DNA of 55,800 nucleotides, counting the filler, from Dugesia japonica (lineage: Eukaryota): assembly GCA_001938525.1 (NCBI GenBank). It is 5 parts of 5 records of this genome, joined end to end, with 100 filler letters (N's around TTAATTAATTAA, not from the genome) between each part and the next. Parts side by side here need not be neighbours in the genome. Positions count along the whole stretch, not along the records: positions 1 to 9,534 come from MQRL01498863.1; 4 more parts are not named here. One strand, 5' to 3'. The position numbers and the translations under genes were made by a program. Under the pieces are notes generated by a model. The model saw only the letters and a list, made by a program, of their open reading frames with translations. It ran no database searches and was not told the origin of the DNA. Positions 801 through 43,805 of this stretch are shown here, in pieces. Position 1 is the first letter of the stretch. Every line of letters begins with the position of its first letter.

Positions 801-911
801 AGTGAGAGTAGAGCATAGTGGAATAAATTAAAATTAAAATATGGAGTAATTTGTAAAATTGTTTTGGAATGGATCACTATAGTATTTTTAAAGTAGTATT
901 TATTTAGTAAA

Positions 912-1316
912 ATGGAACAGAAACAAATAACAATGAGTGGACGACTAACAGTAAATGTGGATCTAGATGACGTCGACAGAGCAATTACAGAGGAACCAGT
1001 ACAAACTCATACCCAACTGCTTAATCAACCTTTAAACCCTTATTTTACAATAAAAAACTTGTGGGATGAACATTGCAGAAACGTAATGAGAAATTCAGAT
1101 GTACTAAACGAACAATTACAACAGACCCAANNNNNNNNNNNNNNNNNNNNNNNNNNNNNNNNNNNNNNTGTGATGCAGATACACCGATTGAATAAAATAG
1201 TGGAGAATCAGAGACGGCAGATTACCGAGAATCAGAATTTTTAACTGCAAACCCTGAGCGGAACTAACAAAATTGTAGAGGATCTGAGACACCAAGTCTC
1301 AAATTCTTCCATTTAA
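912..1316 (+). pseudogene. Short coiled-coil ORF, probably retroelement accessory gene
   Basis: ATG 5 nt after TATTTAG; Q/E/N-rich heptads; reading continues past one stop at about 1242. Confidence 0.4.
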
Positions 1317-2267
1317 TTTGAGTTGGTTTTTCATGTCCTGAGCTATATTATTTTAAATAATTTTCTGTTGTTGTTGGATTGCTTATTTGAGCCTTCGGGC
1401 TTTAATTCTTTAATTATTAATTTCTTTGAGCATTTTATTGTTGATTATTATTTATTTTCCGTTTTTCGCTCTTCTGATATTAATTTTCGTTCAATAATTT
1501 TTTGAATTATTATTCCTTTTCTATCTGTCTCCAGTTATTAGTTATAGTCATTCTTTAACCACGGAATTTATCATTTGAGCATTCTCTTTATTCATCGTCT
1601 TCGTGAGCACTTTTAATGATTCTTTATCTTTCCGAGTTATTATTATACCAAGTGGACAAAATTTATTATTGTTATTACCAAGTTACAAATTCATAGTGCA
1701 GAGCTTATCCTATCTCAAATTAACCGATTACCGAGCGTATCCACAATCCTGAACACTATCGAGACGAGCGAGAGGATGTGGTACGGAGAAAAGAGTAACG
1801 TATGACAACGGATGCCAAGATGTAGAGTATTGTAATGTATGTGTTAAATAGTAACTGTGTTACTATGCAAAAAAAATAAATAATCAAAAACAGTAAAAGT
1901 ATCGTATAAGTAGAGTGGCAATCATATATATTTAATCAGTGCGTAATCAGCATAATCCCGATTTGTATATACAATGTATGAGTATTTTCGAAAAGTGTGA
2001 AGTGTTGATGTGGAGGTGATAATGATGGTGTGTAAATGGCCCAATGAGGAGTGGCATATGGTGTATCTATGAGTGCGATACTCGGTAAAATTGTAAATAA
2101 ACTTAAAGTTCGGATACAGTACAGTAACAGTAGTAAGGAGAACAATATTAATCTAATTTGTAATATCAGTTCAATTAACATTTGATTAACCAGTAAATTC
2201 TATAATCAGTACTCCCAATGTCTTAATGTATAAATATTTCATGTTTACCTGTATTTTAATTAAGAGA

Positions 2268-3167
2268 ATGGCATCCAGATATCAACACCGTATGAATCGG
2301 CAACGAGTTGTGATTAAAAGATATTACGAGAAAAGCAACCGAATCAGCGACGACAACTCCAGTATATATTGGGAATCGAAATCCGATGAGAATAAAACGA
2401 GTGAACAGCTAAGCGGTGGCGAGTCACCGAAATTACAGTCAAAGGTACTTGAATTAGAGAAGCAGGTTGAGAAGTTGGAAGTCAAGTTGAAACAATCACA
2501 ATCCCAACCCCAAAGCCACGAAAAACGATTTTTTGAAATAGAACAATCCCGTGCTCAGTGAAAAAAGACATGTTTGGCCAGAGAAGAGAAAATACATCAA
2601 CTACAAATGGAGTTATCATCCCTGCAAAAAAGACATCTTGATCAAGTTAGAGAGTTAGAAACTGAGATCAAATGGCAGAGTAAAAAGATCAAAATGCTTG
2701 AGAAAACCATAGAGTATAATAATGAAATCAGAAATNNNNNNNNNNNNNNNNNNNNNNNNNNNNNNNNNNNNNNNNNNNNNNNNNNNNNNNNNNNNNNNNN
2801 NNNNNNNNNNNNNNNNNNNNNNNNNNNNNAACAGGATGTGATCGAAATTCAGAATTTAGAAAATGCCGTAAAGCATCTACACGATGAGAATGTGCTTCTA
2901 AAAGAAATTCCCATCCGAGTGGTAATTCCACCACGTCAAAGTAAACCAATAAACCGCGAGCAGACGTTTTATACCTACAAAACCAATGGGCGACTTGTAG
3001 CCCCACAAATTAGTTTACTCGATCAGCGAGCCATTCAGAACAGACAAACCCAACCATCCCATTCCGAATCCAGCAGGTCAAATACGTTCTACCCCACGAC
3101 TTCAGAAAATGCACAAACGCAATGGCCATATTCAGCGTCCGAAGAGGATCTGTTCTGGAGTCGATAA
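2268..3167 (+). pseudogene. About 300-codon SMC-like coiled-coil ORF with one internal stop
   Basis: ORFs 2226-2561 and 2574-3167 are in the same frame, separated by a single TGA; long heptad region; ATG just after TTTTAATTAAG. Confidence 0.5.
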
Positions 3168-3743
3168 ATCTTTCGTGTCGAGCAGTTCTATGTTGCGTGT
3201 AAACTATGTAAATATTTATCGTAATGTGTGAAACTATTCATATTTGTGTCTCTGACAATTCCATACCAAAATGTCCTCTGACAGTTCAATACTGTCTGTT
3301 GGGTCGTCTTGAGTGTATTCTGCAGTTCTATGCTGCCAATCTCTCCTGAGCTATGCTGCTATCTCCAAGTCAAAGGTGTTCTCCAAATTCATTCTGTCCA
3401 TCAAGAGAAGATTCAAACTCTTGAACTTTATGATTGTATTGTGATCCAAGTGTGAGATAAATTCGACATTGTTTAATTATAATGCAGGGATCCAGGTATT
3501 AAAATGACAATTATGATGTAGATAAAGAACATAGAATTGATTCAGTGATTTAAATTGATTTTTTTTAAAAATCTGCATGTGTATTTCTTATATTTGATTA
3601 AAATAATATATTTTCAATTTTGTTATTTTTCTTCTTATTTCTTATCTGTATGTATTTTTTGACAAATTAGATTCTTGCTTGAGGGATCTTTTGACCAGTG
3701 TAAGTGACAACCGAGCTTCCCTAAAATCAAGGGTGCGAAATAA

Positions 3744-3839
3744 AGTAGATAGGAGTTAGAAGAGTAGGTGAAGAAATTGTTACAGAAGGAATTTTGAGAG
3801 AAATTCCGGGGCGGAACTTTTTCGAGGCCCCCAGTATTT
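3744..3839 (+). mobile_element. Probable Polinton terminus (AGTAG start) interrupted by element A
   Basis: AGTAGATAGGAG...AGTAGGTGAAG resembles the terminus at 18103 (AGTAGATAGATAGGAG...AGTAGGTCAAAG). Confidence 0.4.
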
Positions 3840-5214
3840 TGTTGAGCTGGAACACCAACATTAGACGAGGAACTAAAGAAATAAAGAAGGGTGAAAATAT
3901 ATAAGATAAAGAAGGATATGCACCAAAATCGATGATCTGGACCAAAATATTATTAAGAAAAGCATTATTATTATTATTATGGTTATTATTATTATGTAGT
4001 TATCATTATTATAATTATCATGGTGCGTTTTAAAAATTATCGAAAAAATGAAAATTAGGCGTAGGGGACCCAAATTTAGTGGGACGAAACTGAAAGTTAT
4101 ATGTAACAAAAGGCAATTATAGAATAAATAATAAAAATAATATACGCTAATATAATAAATTATTAAAGAGGCCTCTGTGACCCAATTTCATTATTATAAT
4201 AACGCTGTATCGCGTTTAATATTAATAATTATTATAATTACGACTGGTCCAATCATCACTGTCCTTGTCTAGCTGATAAAATAACACGAAAATAATCAGC
4301 AGTTTAGCTGACTCATTCCCTGCTAGATAAGGACTTGGCCTAACAACTAACCAATTCGTCACATAGGTCATATGAGGTGATGACCAAGATTTGTCAGAAT
4401 GCAAAAGTATGAGTTCGTGTGCAGAGGTACTGAGATATGCACACTGAATTCGAGCCTACAACAGCCAATCAGGAGAACAAACATCAGCATCGCATTGGCC
4501 GGTCAATTGAGGGCACAACAATCGCTTGTTGTTACAATGAATAAAAAGAGATGAAGAGAAAAATGATGGCCATTAATTCAAAACAAAAAATTTTTTTTAA
4601 AATAAATTAAAATTGATCTTAGCGACCATTTATAACGAAATAAAAGAAATTTTTAAAGAAAAAATTATCAAACTNNNNNNNNNAACTACCGATTAGAAGC
4701 GAAAAGAAGATAATTGCGGATAAACTTACCAGGAGAAGATAATCATAATTCAGAGTAAAATTTAATTTTATTTTTATTTGCAGTGATAATTATTATCCTG
4801 GGGGAGTGCCATTCACAGTGATTGTTTTCCAATTAGTGATCGGGCTCCTACTAAAAGCAAATATGTTATGTGGGTTAGGTTAAATTCGGGAATGAGGTTG
4901 CAGATGAGGAAGGAGATGAGATTTAATTTATGCCAACGTTAGAGAGCAATATCCAGAGTAAAAATAGGAGTTGTGAGGTCGATAGATGAGAGAAGAGTAA
5001 TTGAAAAAAAGGAAAATTCTGTTAGGATTTGGAAAGAAAATATTGCTGAGCCCGATCAGTCAGAGGAGGACGATCATTAATGCCCCATAGGGATGACTTT
5101 CGAATTTTTGTTTGTTACGATTGGTAGTCGGATTATTAGGCATGTTGTACAGGTTCCAATTTAATTTTAATTTGTTTTATTGTTTTAATTAAAAGTTTTA
5201 CGTTGAATAAACAC

Positions 5215-5495
5215 TTGATAATTTTGATTTTTATTATGTTATCAGTAATATTATTATTATTAATAGGAAATTTAAGATTCGAATTTTAAATAATGCAGTG
5301 CCTAATTTCAGTTATTTTATAGAAGTGTTTAGATTGACTATTTGATAATTTTGATTATTTTTTATGTTATCGTTAATATTACTATTATCCATAGGAGATT
5401 TAAGATTCGATTATTAACATTATTATTGCTGATATGAGATTTAGTATTCGATTTTAAATAATGCACTGCCTAATCTAAATTATTTTATGGAATTG
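5215..5495. repeat. Imperfect tandem duplication (about 125-150 bp, 2 copies)
   Basis: TTGATAATTTTGATT...TTTAAGATTCGA...TTTTAAATAATGCA.TGCCTAAT occurs twice. Confidence 0.75.
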
Positions 5496-5972
5496 ACTGT
5501 AGTTGATCACTAGCCAAATGTTCACTTCAAATTATGCATAAACAAGGCATAGTTTCGATCATTTTCTTAAGCCGATGTTATTCGACCATCCATGTAATGT
5601 TAGCTGTAAATGAAAGAATTTACTCGGATTATTACCTCCACGTTTTTAGTATTAATATTGGTATTACTGAGCAGTTCCGGGAAGTATGACATAAATCAGA
5701 GTAAATCAACGGGATGTCCAACGATGAGATCGAAGTTGTTTTTGCCCTAGACTGATAGGGAATTTCGTCATAGAGCTTGACCATGGCGAGAACGAGAAAA
5801 GATGTTTGCGATGAGGGAACATCTTTTCTGGTTCACGTCATGAAGCGGTGGAAAAGTTATAATAGGCCACAGGCCGAAGAAACGTTTTATTAATTCAAAT
5901 TTTGCCTTGTTACTTATAAATCTTATTTAATGTTGTAATGAAAATAGTTGATAAATTTATTTACCAGAAATA

Positions 5973-6403
5973 ATGACCGAATATTACCAGCCACATATCC
6001 CATTGGTACTCACCAATGATGCAGAGGAAGGAACGTTCTGGTTCCCTGGAGGAATACCGTAGAACTATTGGAGGAGCAGCGTGGTAAATATGAGAAAGAA
6101 AAGGCGGAGACGCTCGGCAAAGGAGGGCAGTTGGTAGCCTAATTCCGAGTGATCAAGCAGCGGCTGATTGACACCCAAAGTTCTCTTCAACGATGCCAGC
6201 AGGAGAACCAACAACTTCGCCAGGAAATGCAGTTGATCCAGGAAGGGGTAGAAAAATTAATTTAGTGCCACACCGAGAGTGGTGCACTATTGGGACACAT
6301 CAAAGATAAGCTCCTATTGAAGAACCCCGAGGGTGTTGCAAGGAGTTCCAACTCCCCAATTCCTCTCATTGTAAAAGTGGAGTCGTTGGCAAGGATTGAA
6401 TAA
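5973..6403 (+). pseudogene. Cassette ORF (coiled coil) in element A
   Basis: Acceptor TTTATTTACCAG (5967), ATG at 5973, degenerate frame ..IKQRLIDTQSSLQRCQQENQQLRQEMQLIQEGVEKL..; stop overlaps AATAAA at 6402. Confidence 0.55.
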
Positions 6404-6715
6404 TAAATGTTTACCTGTGACCGAATTGTGTTTTATTTGTTTCATTTTAAGCGATTAAACTCCAGTGATATGTACGTCACTTGTTTACTAAATAAATTGA
6501 GTCTATCGAGGTAGCAAGGAGTGGAATAGGTACTATCTAGCCACTAGTTTTGAATAAGACCTTGGTCACTGTGGAAAATTTATTCAGTGGGGTAAATCAA
6601 CATATAGCTTAGTTTTCTTTATAAATTGTACTAATTTACATCGCATTGCTTATATCTCATATTGTCCTTATGATTAATAACATGAATGTCAAATGAATAA
6701 TATCTAACATTTCAG

Positions 6716-7038
6716 TGAACAATTCAAACGACACCAAGGTACCACGAGGTAATGGAATCGACGCGCCGCACCGGTGGAAAGAGGAACGGCGATAACTAAA
6801 AAATGAGATTCTGCGGCTGAAAGGACAGGTCCAGAAGTCGGCGGCCAAGTACAACCAAATCAAAGAGAAGGAGCTATCCCTTCAACTCGCCAACAGGTTA
6901 ATGGCTGATGTCATTAAGACATACGCCGATAGAGAGAGTTCGATGTTTGTGACCTTGCGAACTCTCTGGTTGAACTATCGAGCGCCCGATCAAACGAACG
7001 ATCCGCCAGAACCAACAGTGGATTTGGACGCTGATTGA
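6716..7038 (+). pseudogene. Cassette ORF of the DRE/YADRESS coiled-coil family
   Basis: CTAAC branch point plus ATTTCAG acceptor (6715); frame ..LQLANRLMADVIKTYADRESSMFVTLRTLW.. with one internal stop; AATAAA at 7056; homologs at 27871 (minus) and 37011. Confidence 0.7.
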
Positions 7039-8286
7039 GGAGCTTGTATGTATAAAATAAATGTTATAAATTGTGACTGAAGCGTTATTATTTCTTGTTA
7101 CGAATTATTGGGAGGATAAAGTTTCTAAGAAGTGGAGCGGTGGTAATCCGACCTTTTCTTACTGAGTACGTGAGAGTTTTGTTGTCAGGGTTCACGGATC
7201 GATGAATAAGACGCGATATCGCAAAGTCGCGCTGGACCCGAGGAAAGAGAGGGGCACATCACAGAGGTGATGCAAACGCTTGTGGTTTTTATGTTGCCCC
7301 TAGATCAGATGACAAATTCTTAAAATGATTGAGAATGAAGAGAAATTTTTTTTTTTGTTAAAAATAAAAATCCTAAAAACCCAACAGTATATTAGATTTT
7401 AGACTAGAGACTTTTCTATTCGCATTCTGAACCAAAAGCTTTATATTAGTTTTATACTAATTAATATTAAAAAAAATTACTATCAATATAAATAAATTAA
7501 ATTTTTATGAAATATTGTAGAACACAGAAACAAGTTGTATTAAAGATTTTGTAAAAAAAATCTATTTTGAAAAGTTATATTGAAATCAAAATAATTGCAA
7601 AAAATTTTAAACAATAAAATTGATGAAAATAATTTTAATTTGGAAAATATATCTACTTGGTGTTTTTATTATAAAATTATCTTACAAGAAAAACATGTTT
7701 CAAATTAATAGTTAATAGTATTTGGACGATTTTCTAACATTCATTATATTAACAACTATAATAGTAATAATAATATTAATAATAATTTATATTATTTTGC
7801 ATTTTTTCATCAAAAATAAATAAAAAGGTAAAAGCGATAATTAAAATCATAAATGACAGTGTGATGTAATCAAATTGTGTAATTATTATGATAACTGAAA
7901 ACTGTAAACGAAATTCAACGCCACATGTTGAAAGAACAAAGATGCAACATGATAAATTATTGAGGTCGATATCAATTTTTGATTTTTGGCATAATTTTTT
8001 GTCAAGAAATAATCTTATTTAATAGGTTGTGAATATTAAATGAAACATGTTAATTTGATTTGTTAAATTTATTGGTTAATTGTTTATGATTTTATTTAGA
8101 TTTATAATTTTTTATAAATATTTCTTTATCGGTTATCATTTAAATAATAAAAATTACCTTTAATTAGATATTCCGATTCTCTAAAATCCATAGTTAAATT
8201 ATTAGTAAAAAATGAAATTTCGTTAAATTAAATTTGATTTTTAATTGAATATTTAAACAAACTAAAAATTGAATGTATTTTAAAAT

Positions 8287-8546
8287 ATTAATTTTATTTA
8301 TTATGTTTATTTAATATATCTTATATTTGAAGTATTGCAAGTATTGTGAGTATTTTGATAATACCATTTGCCGATAATATTACATGGATTTTATAATATT
8401 AATTTTATTTATCATATTTATTTATTAAATCTTATACTTTGAGTAATGCTAGTATTGATAGTATTTTGATAATAGTATTTGCTGCTAATATTGCTGGCAT
8501 TTAATGATATTAATTTTATTTATCATATTTATTTGTTAAATCTTAA
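8287..8546. repeat. About 111 bp tandem repeat, roughly 2.4 copies
   Basis: ATTAATTTTATTTAT...GTATTTTGATAATA units start near 8287, 8398 and 8509. Confidence 0.75.
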
Positions 8547-8773
8547 TTCATCCTGGTGATGATGATAAACAATGTTCGATGAGTGACGCTCATCAATAAA
8601 ATCCAGATTCCTACCTAGATAAAAAAGAGATAAACTCAAAGTTCTACAGGAACTACAAAAGAGAAACAGTGTAATCGTGCTGTTAGTAAGTGGTTTGTTT
8701 CATTTTTCTTTACGCTCTTGTTGATTTCAGATTTAATCGTAATATGTTCATGAGACAATTCCAGAAATCGGAT

Positions 8774-9534
8774 AATTAATCAAAGGTTAAATCGAAAACA
8801 GATATTTATAAACATTAACAAATGATTGGTCAATTTTAAAAGTTGATATTTAGTTGCAAAATTTAGAAGCATCGAATAATCACTAAAGGTGGGCAGACGG
8901 GGGGTAACCGTTTCCATGGCAACCGTATCAAACCTAGGTTTGTACAGCACAATATAAGTATGCGAAATATTTGGATTCTAAATTGAAACCATTAGGAATT
9001 CTAATTTTGAATGTAAGGACAGTTTTGAGTTGGTAAATTTTATCTCAAATTCTGTTTTAAGTAATAATGATGAGTTTGTGGTATCTTGATGTTTCTAGCT
9101 TATTCACTAATGTTACTTTTTGCTGGAAATAATAGATCTTTTTTGTGATTTATTGGAGAATAATTTGAGTGATCATTCTGAATTGAATATAGCTGCCTTT
9201 CGTGAATTGTTGACTTATGCAATGGCTAATGTTTCGTTTCTGTTTAACAATGAATGGTATAAACAGATTGATGGAATGGCTATGGGTTCTGACTTTGGCT
9301 CCGACATTAGCATCAATTTTCTTGAAATAGCTTGTAGAACGAATGAACTGGTATTCTTTGAGTAAGCCTCTTACTTACAAAAGATATGTTGACGATGTTT
9401 TACTTATTTTTGGTAATCGTAAACATATTTTGCCTTTCCAGAGTTGTATGAATTCGTTACATCCCAATATTAGATTTACTGTAGAGGAGGAAAGAAATGA
9501 TATTTTGCCTTTTTTGGATATTTTAATAGAAAGG
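8774..9534 (+). mobile_element. Second copy of the X-box segment plus Penelope RT fragment, truncated by contig end
   Basis: Duplicate of 1-761. Confidence 0.9.
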
Positions 9535-9634
9535 NNNNNNNNNNNNNNNNNNNNNNNNNNNNNNNNNNNNNNNNNNNNTTAATTAATTAANNNNNNNNNN
9601 NNNNNNNNNNNNNNNNNNNNNNNNNNNNNNNNNN
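9535..9634. other. Artificial contig linker (N-TTAATTAATTAA-N)
   Basis: Six-frame stop linker flanked by N runs; the same construct occurs near 18370, 31985 and 43750. Confidence 0.95.
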
Positions 9635-10327
9635 TTTAGAAAAACAAGTATTAAATCATCAAAACCATGGTCTCTATGTGGTCCTTTGCAACTAGATTTC
9701 ATGGATCATCCAAAGTATCTTTTTCCAGGTGTTAATCCTCCGATTCGATTAAAAAGAGCAAACCCCAGAATGTGTTTAGAATCTCAAATTGATGAACCAA
9801 AACATTAATTATTGGATGCAAAACTAATGGGAAGAAGAGCTCGAGTAAATTCATCAGTACTAACAGATCATTAAATTGGATTAACAAAACAAAATGCTAT
9901 TTATCCAATAAAAACCAAGGAAATTGTATCATTTTCATCATTTTATAAGGAGCAAATCTATGGAGATCATCGATTGCCAAACTTTATTCTAGTTTCATTT
10001 CAAGATGGCGAACGATATAAAGGAAGCTATAAAATACGAAGCTCACTTTTCGATAATTTCAATGTTACATCATTAACTCTATCAAGTAACGGCGAGTACA
10101 GAGTGACTTACACACAAGACTTTAAAAATGATGATAATAGTACATCAAATATGCAATCAATAGTTAGAAATTTGGGATATCTTAACAAGAATATGAATTG
10201 TGGAATAACAATTGAAGATTTTAAAACCAAATATTCATTTTTAACTTTTGTGCTAGCTCCAGATTTTGATATTAATCAGAGTCAATTACCGATGCTGGGA
10301 AATATTAAGCTAGATGTAAAATTTGAA
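9635..10327 (+). mobile_element. Polinton/adintovirus major capsid (hexon-like double jelly-roll) gene, degenerate C-terminal half
   Basis: SKPWSLCGPLQLDFMDHPKYLFPGV..IRLKR; YKGSYK...FDNFNVTSLTLSSNG; CGITIEDF..YSFLTFVLAPD..GNIKLDVKF. Confidence 0.8.
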
Positions 10328-11572
10328 ATCAAAGTGGTCAAGTCGAGGGAGTCGGCAACGGTTAATTCGGATCGACTACTGAGATGGATCGACGGTGAAC
10401 ATCAGTAATTAAAATGAAGTCGAGTAAATCATGACAGGGATTGTGCAAGGTCAAAGAAATTGAAATTGACTTGTGTTTTTCGTGGCGTGAAAAACATTGA
10501 GTAAACGTCAGAGAAAAGTCGAGTGAAATGTGGGGAGAGATTCAGAAAGTCAGGGTAAAATAAAACTGATTTTTGTTTTACTTTCCATCAACTAAAAGAG
10601 ATAATTTCAAATGAGGGTAGAAGTTCGGATAGTCAGAGAAACAACAAACTGATACTCGAATTTCTGTTCTTGTGAAATAACGAGTAATTATCAAGGAGAT
10701 AAATGAGATGAGATTGAATGAGTCGGTTGGAAGCAATTAGAAAATAAAGAAAATAACAAATTGATTTTGAATTGCTTTAGACAGTAGTATCAACATCAAA
10801 GGATCGGTGATATAAATCGAATTACAGGTAATTTTAATATTGACAAAGAAATAGATGTGACAAACTCTGAGATACTAAGAAACATGATGAAATCAAAGAA
10901 AAAATAGTGTTATGCAAGAAATCAAAGCAAAAGTCAATGATAATAAAATGATAATGAATGCGGAATTCAGATAAAATGCTCAGCAAAGNAANGTGGGAAA
11001 GGAATAAANTTAAATTTGTAAAATTAAAGGTGTGCATAACGAATTAAGAGAGTAAAGTAACATTAATAAATCGGATAATTGTGCAGTGTGTAAAAATGAG
11101 ACTTAAATATGTGTATATGTTAGTTACAAATAGAAGTATAATAAAGTAAACGATAACAAGTGTTAGTAAATTGATAAAGTGTGTAATGAGAACTAATGAA
11201 GTGTGTATTGAGAGTTAACTAAGTATGTGTTATGAACTAACAAAGTATGTATTGTGAAGTAATAGAGTATATTGTGTGTGTAATAAATAGTGTGAGTATG
11301 AATTAAAAAGCTAATGCAAATTACTAATAAATGCATAATAAAGTGATATAATTGGAGTGTATCATATTTTTCTTTCAAATTATTCATAAAATCAAACGAT
11401 CAAGAACTCAATCAGATAATTCACCATTGATATTTCAACTGACAGATACAATCTACAAAATACGACAAAGGATCAGAAATATTATTCGAGTAAAAAATCA
11501 CATCCATCCAAGACACAGAGATCAGCATCGCTCAATCCTCAAAGCAAAACCCCATACGATAAATCAATCTTA

Positions 11573-24400: not shown

Positions 24401-26621
24401 AACCAAGAAATATAATTGCAAACATGAAATATAATTTGCAAACTGTTACTAGAACTACAGTACAAAAAGGATGACTAGAAAAGCACGAAGAGTTCTGCCA
24501 TAAAAGCAAAAAAAGAAGCAGGAACATTTGTTAATAAGAAAAAGAGAAGTGAAAGAAAAAAAATGGGGAAATGAACCAGGCGAAAAATTTAAATGCGCGT
24601 AAAACTGTTGCAGAAAAACGACAAACATGAATAATATTGAAACGCGGAACTAGGAATCACAGATAATAATTCTTGACGTAGACCATCGTAAGATCGAATG
24701 ATATTAAGACCTCCTTTACAAGGGCGGTGATCTACAGTTAATATTCTATACCTGGAGAACTCCTTGAGCACAATACCTCTCTTTGGATGTAGGGTTCACC
24801 ACCACTGTTACATTCGATTAGGGTTCATTTTAGAAAAAATTACAAATTACAAAACTACCTGGAACTCTAATGATTCACGATTATTGTTATCTGGTATATC
24901 GACATTGAAAACAGTTCCCAAATCGACACTTGACTCATATGAACTTGTAGTATAATTACTGTTTAATGATTCACATGAATCAGAGATATCCGAACTGGAG
25001 TCGGATTCATCTGAATTCTCGTCGCTGTTTAATTTCTCAAATTTTTCTTTTTTCTCACACGTCTCCTCATTGGAATAGATTTTCCGGTATAATTCCAACA
25101 ATTCATCCATTGGTATTTCAGCGTCTTCTTTCAAGTGATCGATTTCCAATTTATTTTGCTCTGCATCATGAATATCTTCATATTTCTCTTGTTCAATCAT
25201 AGTCTCTTCCCAATCATCGCTAGCTTCAGCATCATCCAGCGGTATTTTTATTTCAACATCATCATCATCATTATTATTATTAATCGAAGGATCTTTATTA
25301 CTATGATTTTCTGAATTAATTTGCTCTTCTTCAACGTTACACTTGGAAATACCATTTTCATTATATTCAATCTTTACATCTCTCTCGTTTTCATTATTAT
25401 TTACTTCAGTAACGGTTTTAAAATAATCCAATGGTAACTCTTTAAGAATATCTTCTAATGACATATCGTTTTGCTTTTGTAATGCCTGAATTTCTTCCTC
25501 TATATTATAATCAACTTCCATTTCTTCTCTGTCTATTGTTTCTTCATCATCAGTCCATTCATCTTTTGCCTAAATTATAAATTATTCATACTTTATTCTT
25601 CTATTATCTAACAACAAATAATACCTGAAACTCAGGATCTTCTTCTGTTGATGTTTCGTTGTCAGCTGATGTGACTAATTTCAGATCTTCTGTCAACCAT
25701 TCAGTATATTTCTGTGTGGTTTCAATAACTTTCCCCAGATGGTCATTGATTGCTTCTTGGCGTCTAGCATCTAATCGAAATTTTTGTTTAGCTAATACAA
25801 TCTGCAAAAAATAACAATTAAAAGATTGAATTGTACTTTAAATCAAACCTTTTGCATTTGTTTCCACCATTCCTTGATAATTTTCGATACATTTAGACAG
25901 TGCTTTTTAGCTTTTATCGTTTCTTCTTTATTATTTTTTAACATTTGGGCTTCTTTTTCTTTAACATATTTATATGCAGCAACAGCCAACTAAATAATTC
26001 AAATTAATACAATATTTAACATGTTTATAAAAAAACTTTTTTCGCATCGACTTTTCGAATTTGCTTATTTGTAGACATATTATCTTGTAACCATTTCATT
26101 TCTTTAATTAATAAATCCCAATGAAAAATAGGTCTAATTGGGTCGGATTTTTTATTAATCATCTTTGATGACCAAAGATTATTTTTCTGAAGTTCTTCTA
26201 CTCTATTTAAAATACAACGTTCAGCAACAACACGATTGATTAATTCATCACTGTCAATATATTCTGGGTCAGAATCATCAGAATCATCAATAAAATATTT
26301 CTTTGAAATTTCAAAAGCATCATCAGATTTAGTATTGGAAATATCTCTTTTGTCATCATCAATTTGTAATTTCTTATAAAAAATAAATACATGGCCACTT
26401 TGTAAATAATTTAATTCGTGTATTGAAGTTTGGTATTTTTTATTAGAATCGTCTATTTCATTATTTATCACTGAAATAATTTCCTTTTTATATTTTGCTG
26501 AACAGGAAATTGCTGAAGCTGTTCGGCGTGGTATTTTGAAATTGTTATCACAAATTTTCCAATTATTTATAGAATTTGACGTTAAACTACTTCTAGTACG
26601 GGTGGAAATACATTCTTCCAT
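18426..26621 (-). CDS. SRCAP: SRCAP/Domino/p400 (SWR1-family) chromatin-remodelling ATPase, 3'-truncated by contig end
   Basis: Exons 26621-26037, 25989-25849, 25801-25625, 25569-24859, 22026-21529, (N gap)-21282, 19417-19225, 19181-18838, 18794-18426, with GT-AG borders in compatible phase. HSA (HWDLLIKEMKWL), LREYQHVGLDW, LADEMGLGKTIQ, ILDE, HREFNEWF, LHKVLRPFILRR, MQLRKVCNHPNLF. Confidence 0.95.
22345..23032. mobile_element. MITE in SRCAP intron with nested pogo/Tigger-type end (from 22492)
   Basis: TIRs CCCGTCAAAATAGCCCAAGACAAAATAG / CTATTTTGTATTGGGCCATTTTGACGGG; internal TACAGTCAACCCTCGTTATACCGCC. Confidence 0.65.
23498..23850 (+). mobile_element. Mariner transposase N-terminal remnant (intronic)
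   Basis: MGDIFEQRSCIKFCVKNKI; GRPPT; NRHLTVREFAEIVGISTGSV. Confidence 0.85.
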
Positions 26622-27547
26622 TAACTAAATTATTTTAAAATTATAATTCAATAAGTAGAAAATAAATTCTCAAATAAAATCAAATTAAAATTTACAGAAC
26701 GTACTTAGTGAATTATATAATTAATAAAAAATATCTAAAAATTTAAAGTATTAATAATTTTCAAATTTTAAAACAAATAACTACGATGGATAATGATGAA
26801 TATAGACTTTCTGTTACAATTAATAATAATTTAAATATTAAAATTACACACTTGAGTAATAACTCATAAATTGTGTGATAATTTCAAATATAAAAGGCGA
26901 AACGAGCTCAAAATAATTTTAATTAATTTACAGGTTTTTAAACATTGCCATATACAATCTGACAAATTATTTGTTGAACAATATATGAATACACAATGTG
27001 ATAAGAGATTTGAAAATTACTTATCTATAAATTATTTTAAAATGCTGATGAAGAAATATTTTTGTGATTAAATTATATGAAAATAAATATTTCAAAAACC
27101 GATTAAGTTAACTTTTTTATATAATGTCGTTTGAAATGCGAATGGTACAAATAATTCTTAACATTTGAAAATTAACCCTTCTGTGGTACCCAGGTAACAC
27201 AAGTATTTTATATTATAATTCATATTTTTTAAATAAAAAGAAAAAATCGATGATCAAAACTTTTTCTAACGGTGAATCATATTTTATTATTCTCAATAAT
27301 TACTTGAACTTGATGTAATGATTTATTGATGGTAATTTAATTTGCTAATTAGTTTTATTTGAAACTTCATAGAAAGTATTGTGCAAAAATTTTTTTTAAA
27401 AAATTTTAATTTTCTGATTAGATATTTTGGTAAGTAAATAGTAAAATTTTATTTTGATAGCAATTAAACACTTATAAACAAATAATTATATATGTACTAA
27501 ATTTAATTACTAGTGTTTTTATTATTTATGAAAATGGGTTATGCATG

Positions 27548-28830
27548 TGTTGAGCCTCGAGCTTTTCTACCCGAATAGGTAAAAATTTGACGATACCTAG
27601 TGAATCGTTCATCTGCTCCGGCTCACACGAGTTTTTGCGATAACCCATCTTTAGAAACTCGTCTTGCTAGTGATTTGCTCGATACTGGCATGATTTCCTA
27701 GATTAAAGACAAAAACAAACGATGGCAAATTATACATGTATTTATATTAATTACATGTTACGGGGATTCAAACATCTTTTCCTCTGTTATCCCACAGCCC
27801 GACACTATTACAACCTTTTTCACCTTTTTTTTACAACCTCCTTCCACGAGGTCTGTACGTTAGACAGGATGGACGACTCCCTGTCTGCATAGCTGTTCAC
27901 GATCTCTGCTAGCATTTTGTTGTTGTGGATGAGTGTAAGCTACCACTGTTTGCTCACATTGACTTACTTTTCAATATCAAAACCTTCTTGTAAATGGCGT
28001 TCTCATCTTGCATCTATTTAAGCTCTCGTCATCGCTGTATTAATTTGCTCGTCAGGTTACTTTTTTGGTGAGCAACTCCTCTCGACTAAGTCGACTTTTT
28101 TCATTGACATATTGAATAATAAGGTTTAGATATTTGGTTTTATCTCACATTTATCGACTAAGTTTAATTTATGCTTATCGATATTAAATTGATATAACAT
28201 AAAAGAAAAAAATTGAATTTGATTTTCTCTTTTTAATAAGATCAGTATTCTACTAAAACATGTATTACTATGAGCACATTATTAATAGTCTTCATTTAAA
28301 CTTCAGGCTTCTGCGGCTCTCAGAGTATGGAACCAAGGAGATGTTTGAAACGACCACCTCTCCAGCGGCAAAGATTGCTTAGCATTTTTGATAGAAGTTA
28401 GCTTGGACACTTTAAAGTAAATAATATATCTAAAAAATATATACAGATCTCGTCACACGTCACAAGTTAAGAAAGAAAACCATTATGTGCATGCATTTCC
28501 AGTAGCTAATGACATTATTTTTTGACTTCACTAAGTTATTGGAGAACTGATCCAATTTTCAGATATAGTTTCCCAGAGCTGTCTCCAGACAGTTTTATAT
28601 GGCTGCCCAATTGGTTTGATAAAGCTTTGGCTAGTCGCACGTCTTTTTGCAAGCATTGTTTTATTTATTTGTCAATGTCAAAAGAGGATTTTCTTGAATT
28701 TTCAATATCCACAGAGTCGAAGTTTGCATTATCGTAATTGAAAACCAATCGTTGGAATGTTCTTTATATAATGGAATTCTTTTTAAGAGTCTTAATTATT
28801 TTCTGATTCATTTCCGATATCAATAATTTA
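27548..28830 (-). mobile_element. Element C: 3' part of a cassette-bearing TGTTG...CAACA element (5' end not found)
   Basis: Ends GGCTCAACA on the minus strand; last cassette (about 28110-27750) encodes NNKMLAEIVNSYADRESSILSNVQTSW; further degenerate short frames at 28300-28410 and 28500-28815. Confidence 0.65.
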
Positions 28831-31750: not shown

Positions 31751-32040
31751 CCCACTGAATGTTACTCAATAGAATATATATAATCAGTTACTCAAACATT
31801 TTTATTGGTTTTATTAATTTCTTCAACAACTTTTTCATGCATTTTCATCCTGCTTTTCATTTCTTAAAACGTCTTCAATTCTTGTTTCTTAATATCTATT
31901 TTCATTTCTTTGTCATCGAGAGCAATGAACAATAGAACTTNNNNNNNNNNNNNNNNNNNNNNNNNNNNNNNNNNNNNNNNNNNNTTAATTAATTAANNNN
32001 NNNNNNNNNNNNNNNNNNNNNNNNNNNNNNNNNNNNNNNN

Positions 32041-32274: not shown

Positions 32275-34130
32275 ATCATGTTTAACAACGAAAGTAATTT
32301 GTGATAAGTAATTGCACAAATGTCATCAGATCTTGAAATGAGATTTTTCAAGATTTAACATGCGAGAGATAATTTTACCAGATACTTTGGTAGAAAAACA
32401 TTTTAAAATAATTGGAGAAATTAAGAATGCAAAAATTTTAGTTTGGAATTCATGTTGAGTTCAAAAGAGATCATGAAATAAAAATTTGCCATTTATCTAC
32501 TTAGTGAAAGGTTTTTTGAAGAGGGAATTAGAGTATTAAATGAGAAGATTGTTGAAAGAAGCGAATTAGAAAGTAGCTGTACTTTTAGTAGGATATTAGA
32601 AATAAATTTCAACTTGACTAAAATAAGCAAAATAAGTTATATTCCAAAGTTAGAAAATCTTGTAATGAAACAAGCAATTGTTAATGTTAAAAACAGTGAT
32701 AATAAATGCTTCATATATAGTATTCTCGCAATTCTTAAACGAGATTTAATAGACAAAAAGCAAAGGAATCGGGTAGCACAATATAACGAGTTTATGTCAG
32801 ATTTTGTATTTGATGAAAATGATATGCCCTTGAAATTTGTGAATATTCCCAAATTTAAAAAAAAACACTGGATTAGCTATTAATGTTCTATCATGGAATC
32901 AGAACTTAAATGAAAATGATGAAGACGAGGTTGTCATGAAACATGCAAACTTAGATATAATTCACAAATCAAAAGTCGAGGGTAGTAAGAAAATTAATTT
33001 ATTATTATTTGAAGAGTGAGATCAATTTCATTACACTGCTGTGGTAAATTTGAATAGATTGATGAACAGAGATATTAATAAGAATGGTGTTCAAATTCAA
33101 TCAATCTGGTGCAAAAATTGCCTTAATGAATTCTGGGATAAAACATCTTTCAAGACTCTTGAACAAATTTTGTGAGAAGATACAAACGGGAACCACTCTT
33201 TCTAAAATGCCCACAGAAAAAGAATTAATATTTACAGATTATTCAAAAACTATGACTCCTTCGTATGTTATTTATGCTGATTTCAAATCAGTGCTAGAGA
33301 AGGATCCCGAACATTACCAAAAACATCTGCCTATATCAGCAAGACTTTGATTAGTAAATAATTTCACTAACGAATATCAATACCATCAATTTATAGGATC
33401 AGACTGTGTTTACAATTTCTTGACAATAATTGAAGAAATTACCTAGAGCATTATATACTTGTTGGGGTGAAACACCCGGTTTTAGAAGAAAATCAAGACC
33501 AGGGGCTCCAAATAAGAAAATAATAAAGTAAAGGACCAAAATAAAATTAATTAAGACTAATCACCACATGGTTAAAACTTGCAAGTATTACAATTAATAA
33601 AATCGGAAGAAAAGGCAAAAGGAATAAATAGAATATCGGATAGATGGAATATCATCTTTAATCAATGATATTAATTAAAAGAAAAATAATTTATTATAAA
33701 ATAAACAAAGAAATTATTATTGAAAATAATGGTTAATTATCAGGAAAATATTAATTAATTTTAGACAAAAAAGATTTAAAATTAGACAAAAATCTGTTTT
33801 TCAAAGATATCTCCGCTCAGAAAAATCACAGAGACTTTTAGTAAGAAAAACTGGATAGAGAAGGCAACTGGTCAATAGAATTTTGTAACAGGAAAGTTCT
33901 ACCATCACCAGGAGAGTTTTGGGAAGGATTTAAAAAATGGACCAATGAGGGGCCAGAAATGAAACATAAAACAAAGCCCTGAAAAACACAATGTGTCCTA
34001 AAAATAGGCACCAATAATATAGCAGAAAAGTTTCAAAACTTTTAGAATTTTTGACAAAACCCCAATCAGTAACAAGAAACAGAAAAAATAGAAGGTCAAT
34101 GAAAAGTGTGCCGAGTTGTATCCAGAAAGG

Positions 34131-34170
34131 TATATAAACCCTGCGAAATTTAGAAGAAATTCATTCATTT
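34131..34170 (+). promoter_or_regulatory. TATA box plus initiator of element B
   Basis: TATATAAA at 34131, TCATTC 30 nt downstream, three CCAAT boxes upstream (about 33942, 34011, 34062), GTGAGT donor at 34448. Confidence 0.55.
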
Positions 34171-36191
34171 TTACTAATTGTTGTACGTAATACCGTATTG
34201 TACTATTGTAATTACTAGCGTTAGAAAATTTATTCAAGGAGAATCTCGTTAATCAATTTTTCTTAACCCACATTGTAATACCACGATTTCTACTAAATTA
34301 ATTTATCAGTGTCTTTACTGAATTTCTAGAGGAGAAATATTTCATTAGTTAAGAAAGGAAATTTGTGGCAGAAATCAACAGCTATTTTCAACTGAAATCG
34401 ACTCCTGTTTGAAGATTAAACCGTTGCAGAATAAATTGTGCTTATAAGTGAGTAAGAATTTTAATGTTAATCGTATAAAATATTTAATGGAAATTGTAAT
34501 GATATTTTAATAAACAATTAATCCATAAATTTATTTTTGTTTAGAAAAGAATTTTAAGTTGAGTTTATATTGTTACTAATGCCATATACATTCCCACATT
34601 TCGCTAGTAAATAATGAAAAATTTCGTAACTCTACTCATGAGGTATGCAGAAGTCGACAGCTGATAGCCGTTATCTCACGCTGTGCATAACAATACATTA
34701 TGTCTGAATCAAAACTCCCTCTGTATTAGTTTTATTTTTTAGCATCTGCCACAGGCGATCAATTAATTACTGACATAAATTGTCAGGCCAAGTATGGAAC
34801 ACACCAACTTGACCACAAAGCACTAAAATTACACTTCACACTGCAAACTCACCATAAGGATGACACACCCACTCGTTTCAGGCAAATAAATGACACACAA
34901 TACAACCTTATTACTACCATGAACAAGATAAATTTTTTGCCTGATTATTGCCGACACTAAACAACAATGAAAAAAAACTACTACAGAGAGGGTATGGATT
35001 TTATTTTCATGTCAAGATCTTGAATCATTGGAGATTAAGTTCATTACAGCGACCTAATTCGAATTGTTAGAGTATCGCATGGTGGTGTATTATTATCTTA
35101 TCTGGTGGTTGGAACTAACATAGAACAAGTTATCCTGTTAATAACCGCTCAATGACTGATAGACTTATCGTGATTTAATCTTAACGCAGCGGTTAAGACT
35201 TCCAGAATAACTATTATAGTTAATATTATACGGAGAAAATTATGATAAATAAATTATTAATATTATTAAGGATATTCGTTATTATTATTATCAGCATTAC
35301 TATTATAGTTGATTATTATTATTAGATTTAAGAGTATTATTACTATCTCTAGTATTATGATGGTCAATATTATTGCTAGTATTATTATCGCTATTCCTAC
35401 TGATATTATTATTATTATTAGCTCTACTGTTACTATTAGTATTATTAGTTCCACCAACATTATTAATATTATTAATTATATTATTAATTTTGTTATTATT
35501 CTTATTATTAATCCACCACCATCAGTTTTATTATCACCATCATCATTAGTAACTTTAGATGAGTGAATAGTAATATTATTATAACTATGGTTAGGTTAAT
35601 ATTCCTCAACTTAGTTGCCTCTAAAATAACAGCCAAGATAAGCATTTTCTCATTCTTTCTTATTATTAGGGGTCGAGTAGTTGAATCCTGTTGGTTTTTC
35701 CTTTAAGCTAATGGTGGAAAATTTTATCGCTAATTTTTGAATAAACCCAATCTAATAATAACCCATGAGTGTGGCTTTATCACCAAATGGGAAGCTACTA
35801 TCTTCTTCTAATATTCGCTATAGCAATTTTAATAAAGGATTTCACAATGACGTCAAATCGGGTGGGATTCATGCATTAACTTTATTTAGATCATGCCGAC
35901 AGAACTAAGAATGGCCTTACGTACTATTTCGAAGCAACCCAAAACAGCGCGGCTTAAGCAACTTATCGGGCATTAATTATTTCCGCACATAGTAGAGCAT
36001 CCTGGCGAAACGGACCTACAGTGTTTCGCCGAGATGTTCCCGTTAGTACATCAAGTGGATATTGACGCGGATTCTTGATGGTCATGACGTCGTTCAGTGT
36101 GTTGCATTTAATAAACCTTTATATTAATCTTGTTCTTAATCAACTGCTGAATATTTACTATTGATGTTAACTGTTGTTACTTTTAGCTACA

Positions 36192-36595
36192 ATGAAATTC
36201 AAATCGGAGATATTGCTTGACCGACGAACCGGTAGTACCATCTTTAATAGATATAAGAACCCATATAATAGAAATGTTGGCGTTCAAATTGGACTCCTGG
36301 TGTAGTAGAGGAGAAAAGAAATTGGGACGCCACTGAGCGTCAAGCTTTCTATCAGTGGACAGGTCCCAACCGATTGCGCGTAGTATACCATGCGGTCCCA
36401 ACTTCACAGGTAGGCGCCAATGGAGAGCCACAGATAATCAGAGAATGGTATGAGGGTCCTTCTGTGGTCGACGTTACTACGGAGCACTTCCCCCCATTCT
36501 CGTACTTAAGTGCTTTCGTTCAAAACAATCTGTGGGGTATAAGAAATACTGAAGAAGGTGATAATAACGAATCTGCCAATAATGGTTTTGCTTGA
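36192..36595 (+). pseudogene. Cassette ORF in element B (unknown product)
   Basis: Acceptor TTACTTTTAG (36186), ATG at 36192, frameshifted, AATAAA at 36627. Confidence 0.5.
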
Positions 36596-36793
36596 ATAGT
36601 TGACTTGGCGACTTGTTGTAATTAGCAATAAAATTATCCTGGTTATAACTTGTGGTTAAATGGCGTCTATTTATCATCTTGCTTTGTTTTTCAACATCAT
36701 AACGATATAAAAAAATCTTTTAAATAATAAANNNNNNNNNNNNNNNNNNNNNNNNNNNNNNNNNNNNNNNNNNNNNNNNNNNNNNNNNNNNNN

Positions 36794-37112
36794 TACTAAA
36801 AAAAGTAAGAGAATCGAGCAGAGACCAGGAGATGACCTGGGATTTATATCGTCTCACGGAACGACAATGGGAGACCGATACCGCCACGGCTGAACGCAAG
36901 GTGCAAAGAAATAAAACTAAGTTTAGAAAAAAGCAGAGGCCTTTCATGCCCAAGAAAGACTCTGGAAAGGTCAAATCGAGTCATTTTCAGAGATCATCCG
37001 GTCTCTCCATGACCGTGAAAATAAACTGGTATCCGATATTTTGACCTTAAAATAGGCCATACCTCTCGAGTCATTGATGATCGATAAGGGCACGCAAACT
37101 TCACGACCCTGA
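36794..37112 (+). pseudogene. Cassette ORF of the DRE family in element B
   Basis: After a frameshift in the A run at about 36930: ..FSEIIRSLHDRENKLVSDILTL..; AATAAA at 37138. Confidence 0.6.
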
Positions 37113-37259
37113 TCTGTTATGAGTTTTTAGTTTTAAAAATAAATGACTTTTTGATTTATATTTATCTTGCTTTCCAGTCGTTTATGTTGATTTCGAGAGT
37201 TTTTCTTTTATTTAAATATTAATAGTGATCGGACCATCTTCTAATTTTAATTTTTTTAG

Positions 37260-37620
37260 TGCCACGAATCCAGCTACCCACCAGTTTACGTAGGTGTCAT
37301 CGTCTGGTTTAAAAGTTGCTTCTAGAACGCCACATTAAGGGCAGAACGAAAGATCGTTACTGCGACACTTGACCCAGAGAAATTGCCTTATTAATAAACT
37401 TGACTTAATCGTCAAAAAGCAGAGTGAAATAGCCAAGCAGACCAAACAACTATTCACGCATAGAATCGAATTCTTAGAACAATATATTGCGGATTTGGCT
37501 AACCGGCTAGAACAAGAGACGTGGACTAACTGGAATAGCGAAGATGATGAAGCCGCTTTTGGCTTCTCATCTGAAGAGCCTACCCATTGGTTAAACCCGG
37601 GTACTCTCAATTTCATGTGA
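37260..37620 (+). pseudogene. Last cassette ORF in element B (coiled coil plus acidic/aromatic tail)
   Basis: CTAAT plus TTTTTTTAG acceptor (37259); stop at 37620; AATAAA at 37630. Confidence 0.5.
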
Positions 37621-40164
37621 TTAATTAGTAATAAATCTTTGTATAGATTCATATTCATTTAATTTACAAACAACTATAAAGAGAAAATAGTGAATCCAAA
37701 ACAAAGGTATACGGTTTATACCCCAAATGAATGTTGGGTGTCAACCACGCTATACCGAAAATCTAATCAGGACATTAGATAAATTCTTGAAGGGGTCCCC
37801 TAAGGGCTGATTTTTCCCCAGCCGCCATTTTTTCTAACACCAACTCNNNNNNNNNNNNNNNNNNNTTACTATCAAGAAAATAGCAAAGAAAAGATGAAAA
37901 TAACAACAGAAGAAGATATTAAATTCAAAAAAACAACTATTTGTCATTTATGTAAGAAAAACATCATTAAATCGGTTCGATACCACGATCATTTCACTGA
38001 GAAATACATGGATGCCGCATGTTCAACTTATAATCTCAGTAGCAAAGTTCGACATGAATTACCTATAGTATTTCATAATCGTAGAGATTATGATTTGCGC
38101 CATATATTAAAGTATGAACTCAGTCAATTTTCTCACTGGAATATCTCATTTTTACCAACAACAAGCGTGAAATCTTCATGTTTGATTGTACACTTGAATA
38201 AAGTAACTATAAAGTTTATTAGTTCTTGTCAGTTTATCAATAGCTCATTGGACGCGGCTGTTAAAACAAATAAAACAACTCCATTAACCAGAGTTTAATG
38301 ATAACAGAATTATCAAATCAAAGGAAATTTTCCCATATGACCTCGCTACAAGCCTGGCCGTGTTGAAAGAAACCGAATGTATGCCACCAATATGGAAATA
38401 TGTCAATGAAGATTCGTATCAGAAGGCTCTGGGAATGTGGAATATTACTGGATGCAAGAATTTACTGGACTACATGATAATTTATCTAAAACTGCTAGAT
38501 AAATTATCATGTATTCCTGCTAGCTGACTTTTTTCAAGAATTTCGAGAGAAGTCTCTAGTACATAACGAATTGGAACCATTATGATTCTTTTGAATTCCA
38601 GGGATGAGCTNGGCATCAGCATTTATGACCCTAAAGGATCCTATTGAATTGCTTACAGACAATAATATGTTCTCATTTTTCGAGGGAGGCATCAGAGGTA
38701 GACTGTGTGGTTCAATGTGAAATCGAACGAAAACATTGATCTTTTGTTCATCGATATAAATAACTTATACGGATGGACATTAAGTCAGAAATTATCATAT
38801 ATGGATTTTCAATGGATTCATACCAGATTAGAGCAAATATTGGACGATTGTATCGTATGGCTACACAGTAGAATTTGACATGGAAATCTCGGACGAGTTA
38901 CATGGTTATTTAAGTGATTTGTCTGTTGGACCCAAACATCAGAGCCCACCAGGGAGTAAGATAAAGAAGCTGTTATTAACACACTATACGAAATTGAACT
39001 ATGTAGTACATTGACAATTACTACAACTGAACATGCAACTTGGTGTTAGGATTTTTAAAATACATAGAGCTCTGATGTTTACACATTATATTTTCAAGAA
39101 GTATATAGACGAAAATACTGAGCTAAGATCTCAGAGTACATCGGATTTGGATAAGAATTATTATAAGCTTTTGAACAATAGCCTCTACGAAAAACATTAG
39201 AAAATCTAAAGAAACTAATGAATCTCAGANTGTGCAATTCAGCTAAGAAGCTTATTACTAACGTTTTAAAGCCAAGCTTTAGGAAAACAATCAAAATAGA
39301 TCAAACTTTAATTGCGGTATTGATAGACAAGGATACAGTTTGTCTCAATCGCCCTTGCTTTATATTGGTCAGACAGTATTGGACTTGAGTAAGCTAAGAA
39401 TGTATCAGGTCTAATACATAGAGCTGGAGAAATATCGGAAAGAGAGAAAATGTACTATTAATATAGTGGTGGGAGATACTGACAGCTTTTTCCTGGAAGT
39501 GAAAGACATTAAATTGGAAAGATTACTAGAACTGATGGTTCAGGATGAGTTGATGAACACTGCAAACTATAATGCATAAGATTAGATTTATAAAAAGTGG
39601 AATTCAGTGGTAGGAAAATTCAAAGACGAAAGCAAGGGTACGAGATACAAGGAATTCATTTTTCTGAGATCAAAATGTTACAGTCTGCTTAGCGAAAAGA
39701 CCAGCATGAAGGCTAATGGAGTAACATTAAAAGATACCGACTTAATACTACAGTCGTATCTAGATTTTTACAACAACAATCAAGCGGTCTCAGTAAACCA
39801 ATTTAGGAAACCAATAGGTACAAGAAACCACCAATTGTACAGCTTTAAATGACCAAAAATAGCATTGACCAATACTGACGATAAGAGAGTATGGACACAC
39901 AAAAACACCAGTGTTCCATATGTGCAAATGTAGTTTGACCGCAAAAAATAAGACTTTGGATCAACAAAAGAATGTACAGGTAATAAATTTATTTGAACTT
40001 ATTAGAGATTTATTTTATTATTTAGTAATCAAAGGAAGAATCAAGTCACATGAAGAAACTTATGAAACTCATTGTATTTGAACTGTTTATTTTGAACTGA
40101 CTTTGTCCAACTGTTTGTAATTTATGTAATAAAGTTTGCCATTATGATTTATGTTTTTTTTATG

Positions 40165-40686: not shown

Positions 40687-41341
40687 TGATAACATGGGTT
40701 TCAGCCTTACATAACTATATATTAACAATAACAACCACCCCAAAAAATTATAATGTCTGTGATAAATGGCTATTCTAGTGACCGGTTAACAAATAGTAAA
40801 TAATGGGGATATACTTAGTTATAAGTTCACTATTCGTTAAGACCTTACAAGGAAGACAGAATCGTTGAATGAATCCATAATAATCAATGAAAGAAATATC
40901 GATGATAAATGTTATAATATTTGAGATCATAAGTGACAGTCATGGTAATAAGAAGATAACTGAGGGCACATATGCATTAAGGGCTACTAAGACAAGTACA
41001 TAGTGTATTTCTAAGGATAAAAATAACTAAAGGTACAGCATCATAGTGAGAATAACGATGAGAGGAATTTTAGTTTTACTATTACAAGTAGTTATTGGAT
41101 AAAAATTATTAGACAAACCTAAAACAACAATGCACTAACAACTATTTAGTTATGTATCAGGGCAGAGAAAAAAACCCAACTAAAAGAAAAAGGACCTGAA
41201 TTCAAACTGCAAGTTGTGAGTAAACGATACTATTCCGAAGATCTAGCATAGGGATGCTAGATTAAATTTTTATCGAGGTTCTAATAAAGACCACAAACCC
41301 GGTTATCAAATAAAACATCCGGCCAAGGTGAAGCCCCAACA
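40687..41341 (+). mobile_element. Element D: 3' end of a related LTR-like element
   Basis: Ends GCCCCAACA (inverse of TGTTGGGG); CTATTCCGAAGATCTAGCAT..ATGCTAGATTAAATT is homologous to 37750-37787. Confidence 0.55.
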
Positions 41342-43705: not shown

Positions 43706-43805
43706 NNNNNNNNNNNNNNNNNNNNNNNNNNNNNNNNNNNNNNNNNNNNTTAATTAATTAANNNNNNNNNNNNNNNNNNNNNNNNNNNNNNNNNNNNNNN
43801 NNNNN

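Follow-up and report, generated by a model that had tools for sequence, protein, structure and literature searches.

Long terminal repeats (LTRs) are usually regarded as regulatory DNA, and a solo LTR as a scar devoid of genes; to our knowledge, LTR ends normally carry at most one gene. Can a solo LTR contain several genes of its own? The question is raised by a stretch of 55,800 nucleotides from the planarian Dugesia japonica (the window), in which a preliminary description had recognized four segments, A to D, with TGTTG or CAACA ends and small genes inside. We concentrated on element A (3840..7386, no strand assigned), which measures 3,547 bp from TGTTG to CAACA and contains a 9-N gap at 4675-4683. 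We consider it likely that A is a solo LTR of a giant Burro-like Ty3/gypsy retrotransposon with accessory micro-genes, and that B, C and probably E0, a repeat on the left of A, are likewise LTRs, from other long-diverged families.

All the termini and flanks named in that description were found: TGTTG at 3840 and CAACA to 7386 in A, the start of B at 33460, TGTTG at 27548 in C and CAACA to 41341 in D. A is flanked on the left by GTATTT (3834..3839, plus strand), a candidate target-site copy which either has one mismatch over 6 bp or reads as GTAT plus two extra T's, and on the right by GTATAT (7387..7392, plus strand), where unique DNA begins as judged from sequence and depth. The flanks proposed as a target-site duplication are thus present, but their 6-bp match is just 5/6, with a chance of about 0.01 for one length. 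Depth was obtained by aligning the public contigs of three runs at 80% likeness and summing per bin, a value which does not equal copy number. The bins over A reached 1,992-134,895, 647-45,328 and 38-1,110 in the three runs, compared to 48-195, 43-285 and 1.8-40 in the unique right flank at 7642-8700, and depth dropped abruptly at the right edge of A. At the left edge, bin arithmetic (depth at 3767 versus the bin mean) placed a 5- to 23-fold rise from E0 to A somewhere in 3768-3903. A is a genuine high-copy mobile repeat; fixed ends together with dispersed high copy hold for A, the sole unit measured, its left edge coming from bin arithmetic alone. The best contig run contains just 31% of the sampled words, so copy A is old or the runs come from a related strain.

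According to depth, far more copies share the termini of A than share its middle. The highest bin is a terminal core at 7207..7291 (no strand assigned), which is present in many more copies than the interior and where RNA reads of relatives fit, diverging outside it. This core had no Rfam match, and folding of 7190-7310 revealed nothing unusual (z of -0.71 and -1.74). Both ends of A, and the left end of B, match the TGTNR pattern of Gypsy LTRs (PMC2836005), and the inverted repeat of A is short. A and B both lack long inverted repeats (none of 40-270 bp) and an internal direct terminal repeat. The claim of an enzyme-less interior stood firmly: a Pfam scan of A and B in six frames each, with stops read as X, gave no family in any of the 12 frames, gag, reverse transcriptase, integrase and transposase all being absent. 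Searches of metagenome and viral contigs yielded no relatives of the elements. Three 20-mer matches were rejected, being to GC-rich contigs with likeness over 20-21 bases alone.

Three gene-like frames lie on the plus strand of A. Micro-ORF 1 (open reading frame 1; 4868..5080) has about 70 codons, an acidic end, one in-frame stop and an acceptor-like site at 4783. Micro-ORF 2 (5973..6265) is coiled-coil-like, with a frameshift near 6045, one stop, an acceptor-like site at 5967 and AATAAA at 6402. Micro-gene 3 (6716..7038), the founder of what we call the YADRE family, has an acidic TVDLDAD tail, one in-frame stop, a branch/acceptor-like site at 6704-6715 and AATAAA at 7056. Stops or a frameshift therefore interrupt 3/3 frames, and copy A is a decayed relic.

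The best evidence for a gene comes from micro-gene 3. P0002, an open protein of 112 aa from public protein sets, is 80% identical to it (E 2e-31), and P0004 (83 aa, same sets) matches the family at 51% (E 4e-5). P0003, a plant repeat protein found at E 9e-7, was rejected as a relative on account of a spurious repeat match, which leaves 2/3 matches of that search. Element C contributes a further member: its end (27548..27963, minus strand) holds a broken YADRE-family gene at 27963-27823. An alignment of the four sequences (A, C, P0002 and P0004) contains 9 invariant columns, and the YADRE motif lies 464 nt (A) and 343 nt (C) from the same element end. That the protein is kept while the DNA is unalignable argues for a real gene under selection, as far as sequence comparison can tell. 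AlphaFold2 predicted one helix over residues 16-103 of the YADRE protein, with a mean pLDDT of 83 and a pTM of 0.45. For the small genes no Pfam family was found above the cut-off, and the Atlas gave generic coiled-coil look-alikes alone. A scoring of 7,994 candidates of 197-2000 aa brought up no longer or fused YADRE form, a result of little weight.

Element B, of about 4.4 kb (33460..37865, no strand assigned; 62-N gap at 36732-36793), shows a similar arrangement of frames on its plus strand. A micro-ORF at 35977..36078 ends in VDIDADS and a stop, with AATAAA at 36110; an open frame of 107 codons (36272..36595) has AATAAA 31 nt downstream; and a coiled-coil-like open frame of 93 codons (37339..37620) has it 9 nt downstream. 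AATAAA was found at -15..+35 of the stop, where the background rate is 0.16, in 4/5 plus and 0/4 minus frames of B, and in 2/2 plus and 1/8 minus frames of A. Acceptor-like motifs in B numbered 12 on the plus and 4 on the minus strand. An ATT-rich degenerate repeat at 35203-35566 can also be read as a frame of 85 codons rich in Ile or Asn, but is probably non-coding.

B lies inside a decayed pPolB and is a clean insertion. The statement that it splits a polymerase gene held in so far as a decayed frame lies on either side together with copies of TACT (33456..33459, plus strand, on the left; 37867-37870, beside an N gap, on the right), but the right end of B is hidden: CAACTC is followed by a 19-N gap, and the base bordering this gap is at odds with a CA terminus. 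The polymerase part downstream of B gave a weak DNA_pol_B_2 match (E 0.0017, below the cut-off), and we take both sides to be contiguous parts of one polymerase from the motif order of Polinton pPolB. No intact relative of the split polymerase was found in metagenome or viral contigs. A second TGTTGGG-type start occurs within the right end of B at 37732-37846; B may be composite, or the motif internal.

A short tail recurs among these otherwise different frames. VD[LI]D plus two to three further residues forms the end of A micro-gene 3, P0002, P0004 and one B micro-frame; the copy in E0 lies near an N-terminus. On the plus strands of E0, A and B the motif, which was picked post hoc, occurs 3 times versus 0.068 expected (0/500 shuffles). 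TVDLDAD and QVDIDADS resemble the SUMO-interacting core of PIAS (SIMb: VIDLT-like, with an acidic flank) as described in sections of PMC3901395, and Burro polyproteins are noted in PMC6431247 to carry a SUMO-like domain; a function of the tail as a SUMO-interacting motif is a lead only.

What kinship do the four segments have? Their description as related did not survive at the DNA level, where blastn among A, B, C and D matched AT microsatellites alone; sensitive alignment of the termini added one weak AT-rich match between B and D and nothing else. The sole translated match among them is that of A 6853-6969 with C 27960-27844 (38% over 39 aa). A and C are tied by the small protein, and A and B by the tail motif chosen post hoc, but neither a single DNA family nor the membership of D was borne out. 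D consists of a terminus-like GAAGCCCCAACA alone (41325..41341, plus strand; membership unconfirmed) and shows nothing beyond the terminal pentamer CAACA. TGTTG or CAACA alone is common in the window, with 141 oriented sites after the duplicated stretch 8774-9534 is dropped; TGTTG-R-G occurs at 9/141, and 5 of these 9 are claimed element ends. As for the claim that A and B start alike, 9/12 bases after TGTTG are identical, which places this pair among the 9 best of 9,870, the sole GC-rich one by eye. This ranking makes the resemblance suggestive, not decisive.

For copy A, whose 3/3 frames are broken and whose interior is nearly without RNA reads, there is no support for the suggestion that a solo LTR goes on acting as a multi-gene expression unit. 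The RNA data are from one run of normal-tissue type, about a quarter of which was read; such a run cannot prove silence. Of 581 reads fitted, 402 were <90% alike. The reads cluster at the conserved ends of A and come mostly from relatives. At both ends they lean first-mate-plus (e.g. 19.9 vs. 7.9, at low counts and mostly from relatives), which would indicate transcription against the direction of the genes, provided that the library was stranded.

The left flank of A belongs to a high-copy repeat, E0 (807..3833, plus strand; delimited by depth and cut on the left), overlooked in the earlier account. E0 is a fifth high-copy repeat of like anatomy, with coiled-coil ORFs at 912-1313 and 2292-3167 and a VDLD motif at 957, and it stops six bases before A. 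Its end, GAGGCCCCCA, resembles the ends of C and D and likewise the 3' end of tRNA-Pro. This neighbourhood suggests another explanation, that A, read on the minus strand, is a 5' LTR which a tRNA-Pro primer site still connects with its internal region, E0, the target-site duplication being due to chance. E0 is indeed high copy right up to A and is not resumed right of A; six bases past the left end of A, TGGGGGC on the minus strand matches the beginning of a Pro-type primer site; and the strand lean of the RNA would fit a minus-strand genomic RNA. The Pro 3' ends given in supplement 1 of PMC13524379 make 7 ungapped matches to this site, and a one-base bulge adds more. However, these ungapped matches fail the rule of 12 nt with at most 2 mismatches set out in that paper, a bulge being required to rescue them, and the termini of C and D look similar to these primer-like bases too. 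The rise in depth from E0 to A points in the same direction, although such a rise would be expected as well if solo copies exceed full elements. We regard an attached LTR as improbable.

It also appears rather improbable that A and B are complete non-autonomous elements mobilized by an integrase (Ginger-like or LARD-like, the latter being large retrotransposon derivatives) and not detached LTRs. No enzyme lies inside either, and in A the ends greatly outnumber the interior, as in internally varied derivatives. The Ginger1 and Ginger2 DNA transposons, as characterized in PMC2836005, share TGTNR ends, and Ginger2 combines a 4-bp duplication with an AT-rich RTATAY target preference, which is matched by the right flank of A. 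Yet those transposons carry terminal inverted repeats of 40-270 bp and a Gypsy-integrase-like transposase, and A and B have neither; an internal direct terminal repeat, expected of a LARD, is also absent from them. On a further reading the units are LTRs or repeats, but they hold one real gene at most, and the majority of the frames arose by chance in GC-richer islands or are pieces captured from the host. This fits frames that are short and mostly broken, the lack of a Pfam family above the cut-off or an Atlas family and an interior of A nearly without RNA, but is very unlikely given a YADRE protein conserved across unalignable DNA and, in excess of background, the stop-AATAAA pattern of B and the recurrent VD[LI]D tail.

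The solo-LTR reading is favored by an enzyme-less interior, by size and ends like those of LTRs, by the small genes and by at least one conserved protein family; the identity as an LTR is itself inferred. Several results weigh against it. In the window DNA no paired LTRs, primer-binding site or polypurine tract were seen for any unit and no copy flanks gag-pol, and the viral and metagenome contig searches offered no relative of the units. The flanks of A give a 4-bp duplication solely if the two extra T's are allowed. Relatives were sought for 1/3 A frames (micro-gene 3), and the best B frame (107 codons, 36272-36595) had none in the protein search. Two of the five scored B frames overlap one island by the gap and may not be genes. 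Acceptor-like motifs in A lack the plus bias (5 plus vs. 7 minus), and in E0 the link of stop and AATAAA occurs in 0/5 plus and 0/6 minus frames. In the one RNA run no bin within 4438-6840 exceeded a depth of 1.15 on either strand, and none of the 15 joints listed, out of 86, was an RNA-supported splice joint.

Which known elements does A resemble? Burro (GYPSM1), a planarian giant Gypsy-like LTR element treated in PMC6431247, shares inferred LTRs of several kb, thousands of copies and accessory ORFs. From its internal region of up to 25 kb and total of >30 kb (PMC6431247) we calculate LTRs of about 2.5 kb or more, and the size of A fits. The likeness is one of description; elsewhere in the window there is a gag with three CCHC knuckles, a feature reported for Burro of Schmidtea mediterranea. 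In contrast to A, the accessory ORFs of Burro lie upstream of or inside the polyprotein, and the account in PMC6431247 that we draw on describes neither LTR genes nor solo LTRs. Plant Ogre elements, in the summary given there, have LTRs of 1.9-6.5 kb, but place their extra ORFs in the internal region (PMC6431247). Mouse mammary tumour virus (MMTV) contains a protein gene, sag/naf, inside the LTR (U3), and its LTR promoters drive it, according to the relevant part of PMC9412291; that is one ORF region in a retroviral LTR, whereas several candidate cassettes occupy a unit of 3.5-4.4 kb here. The sORF1 and sORF2 (small ORFs) of the Drosophila MDG1 group, as presented in PMC11952523, likewise encode accessory micro-proteins of 70-110 aa in gypsy elements and are under selection. 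They lie, however, upstream of gag on the genomic strand, and a transmembrane helix is present in sORF2 but not suggested by the YADRE model. Six env-carrying elements of S. mediterranea are listed in supplement 1 of PMC13524379 without LTR or primer-binding site. Giant planarian gypsy elements with accessory ORFs (PMC6431247) and a gene in an LTR, from MMTV (PMC9412291), are therefore already known. Full-text literature searches returned no account of multi-gene LTRs; the primary Burro paper with its supplement, and Repbase/Dfam, lay outside their coverage and may annotate them.

Every step past a high-copy enzyme-less insertion with a conserved small gene is inferred. On the solo-LTR reading, a full element would integrate at an AT-rich target with a 4-6-bp duplication, and recombination between its two LTRs would leave one LTR with the original flanks, a unit which we would not expect to move on its own. 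A would have landed in a target copy beside the end of E0, itself similar to the termini of C and D. In the parent element the micro-genes would have an accessory role; kept in the LTR, they would be copied at every round, each one a cassette of acceptor, ORF and poly(A) signal. They may well run opposite to the genomic RNA, so that their poly(A) and splice signals would be kept out of it. Were they in sense, a genomic RNA that traverses the 3' LTR would meet several poly(A) signals and be truncated, which makes the antisense layout the simpler conjecture, although an internal poly(A) site downstream of sORF1 is tolerated by MDG1 elements, as reported in PMC11952523. The micro-proteins, with a long helix and an acidic VD[LI]D tail, might speculatively serve as interaction adaptors that regulate the element or blunt host silencing.

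The window has a GC content of 29% and numerous N gaps. Four identical N44-TTAATTAATTAA-N44 linkers (9535-9634, 18326-18425, 31941-32040 and 43706-43805) suggest five joined pieces, and adjacency across them may not be genuine. A non-LTR reverse transcriptase fragment of 761 bp is 100% identical at 1-761 and 8774-9534, just before a join, and is probably an assembly artefact. ARAGORN found 0 tRNAs in the window, and Rfam 0 matches at E up to 5; the hammerhead ribozyme motif, a mark of Penelope pseudo-LTRs and retrozymes, is accordingly absent from the Rfam matches, which minimal hammerheads may escape. Besides an animal-type eIF3a gene, the window holds an SNF2 gene, Polinton-type polymerase fragments, gypsy reverse transcriptase fragments and the gag with three CCHC knuckles. 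The SNF2-family host gene extends over several exons at 18426-26624 (minus strand) with a weak HSA match, and is presumably Domino/p400-like. A GC-richer segment in an intron-like part of it (20470-20868), with the end GCCGCAACA and a 54-nt imperfect palindrome, is possibly another element end. AGTAG-type motifs and short tandem repeats at 17060-17085, 18100-18325 and 45215-45240 adjoin polymerase fragments, and we take them to be Polinton-terminus-like. A decayed DDE_1 transposase fragment (pogo/Tigger-like, E 5e-7) lies at 47531-48699 (minus strand). The gag belongs to a decayed Burro-like element at 10330-16061 (Retrotrans_gag, E 0.0011; three CCHC knuckles, then a long unknown polyprotein). 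Its start immediately follows a frame at 9875-10330; TGG occurs close to this junction, and no LTR is visible. That frame had no Pfam match and is, we presume, a Polinton capsid-like gene.

If the solo-LTR reading is true, the genome would gain a large, as yet unannotated set of micro-proteins from multi-gene LTRs of several families that diverged long ago. A wider proposal, which we hold to be doubtful, is that giant gypsy elements of the planarian type would hold micro-gene arrays in multi-kb LTRs antisense to their genomic RNA, that their unrelated micro-proteins would share an acidic, SUMO-binding-like tail and counter piRNA-guided chromatin silencing, and that thousands of solo LTRs would scatter the cassettes, young ones still expressing them. 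The LTR elements of this genome are major targets of Piwi-interacting RNAs (piRNAs), as stated in PMC8532177, and the micro-proteins would then be testable candidates for transposon anti-silencing factors.

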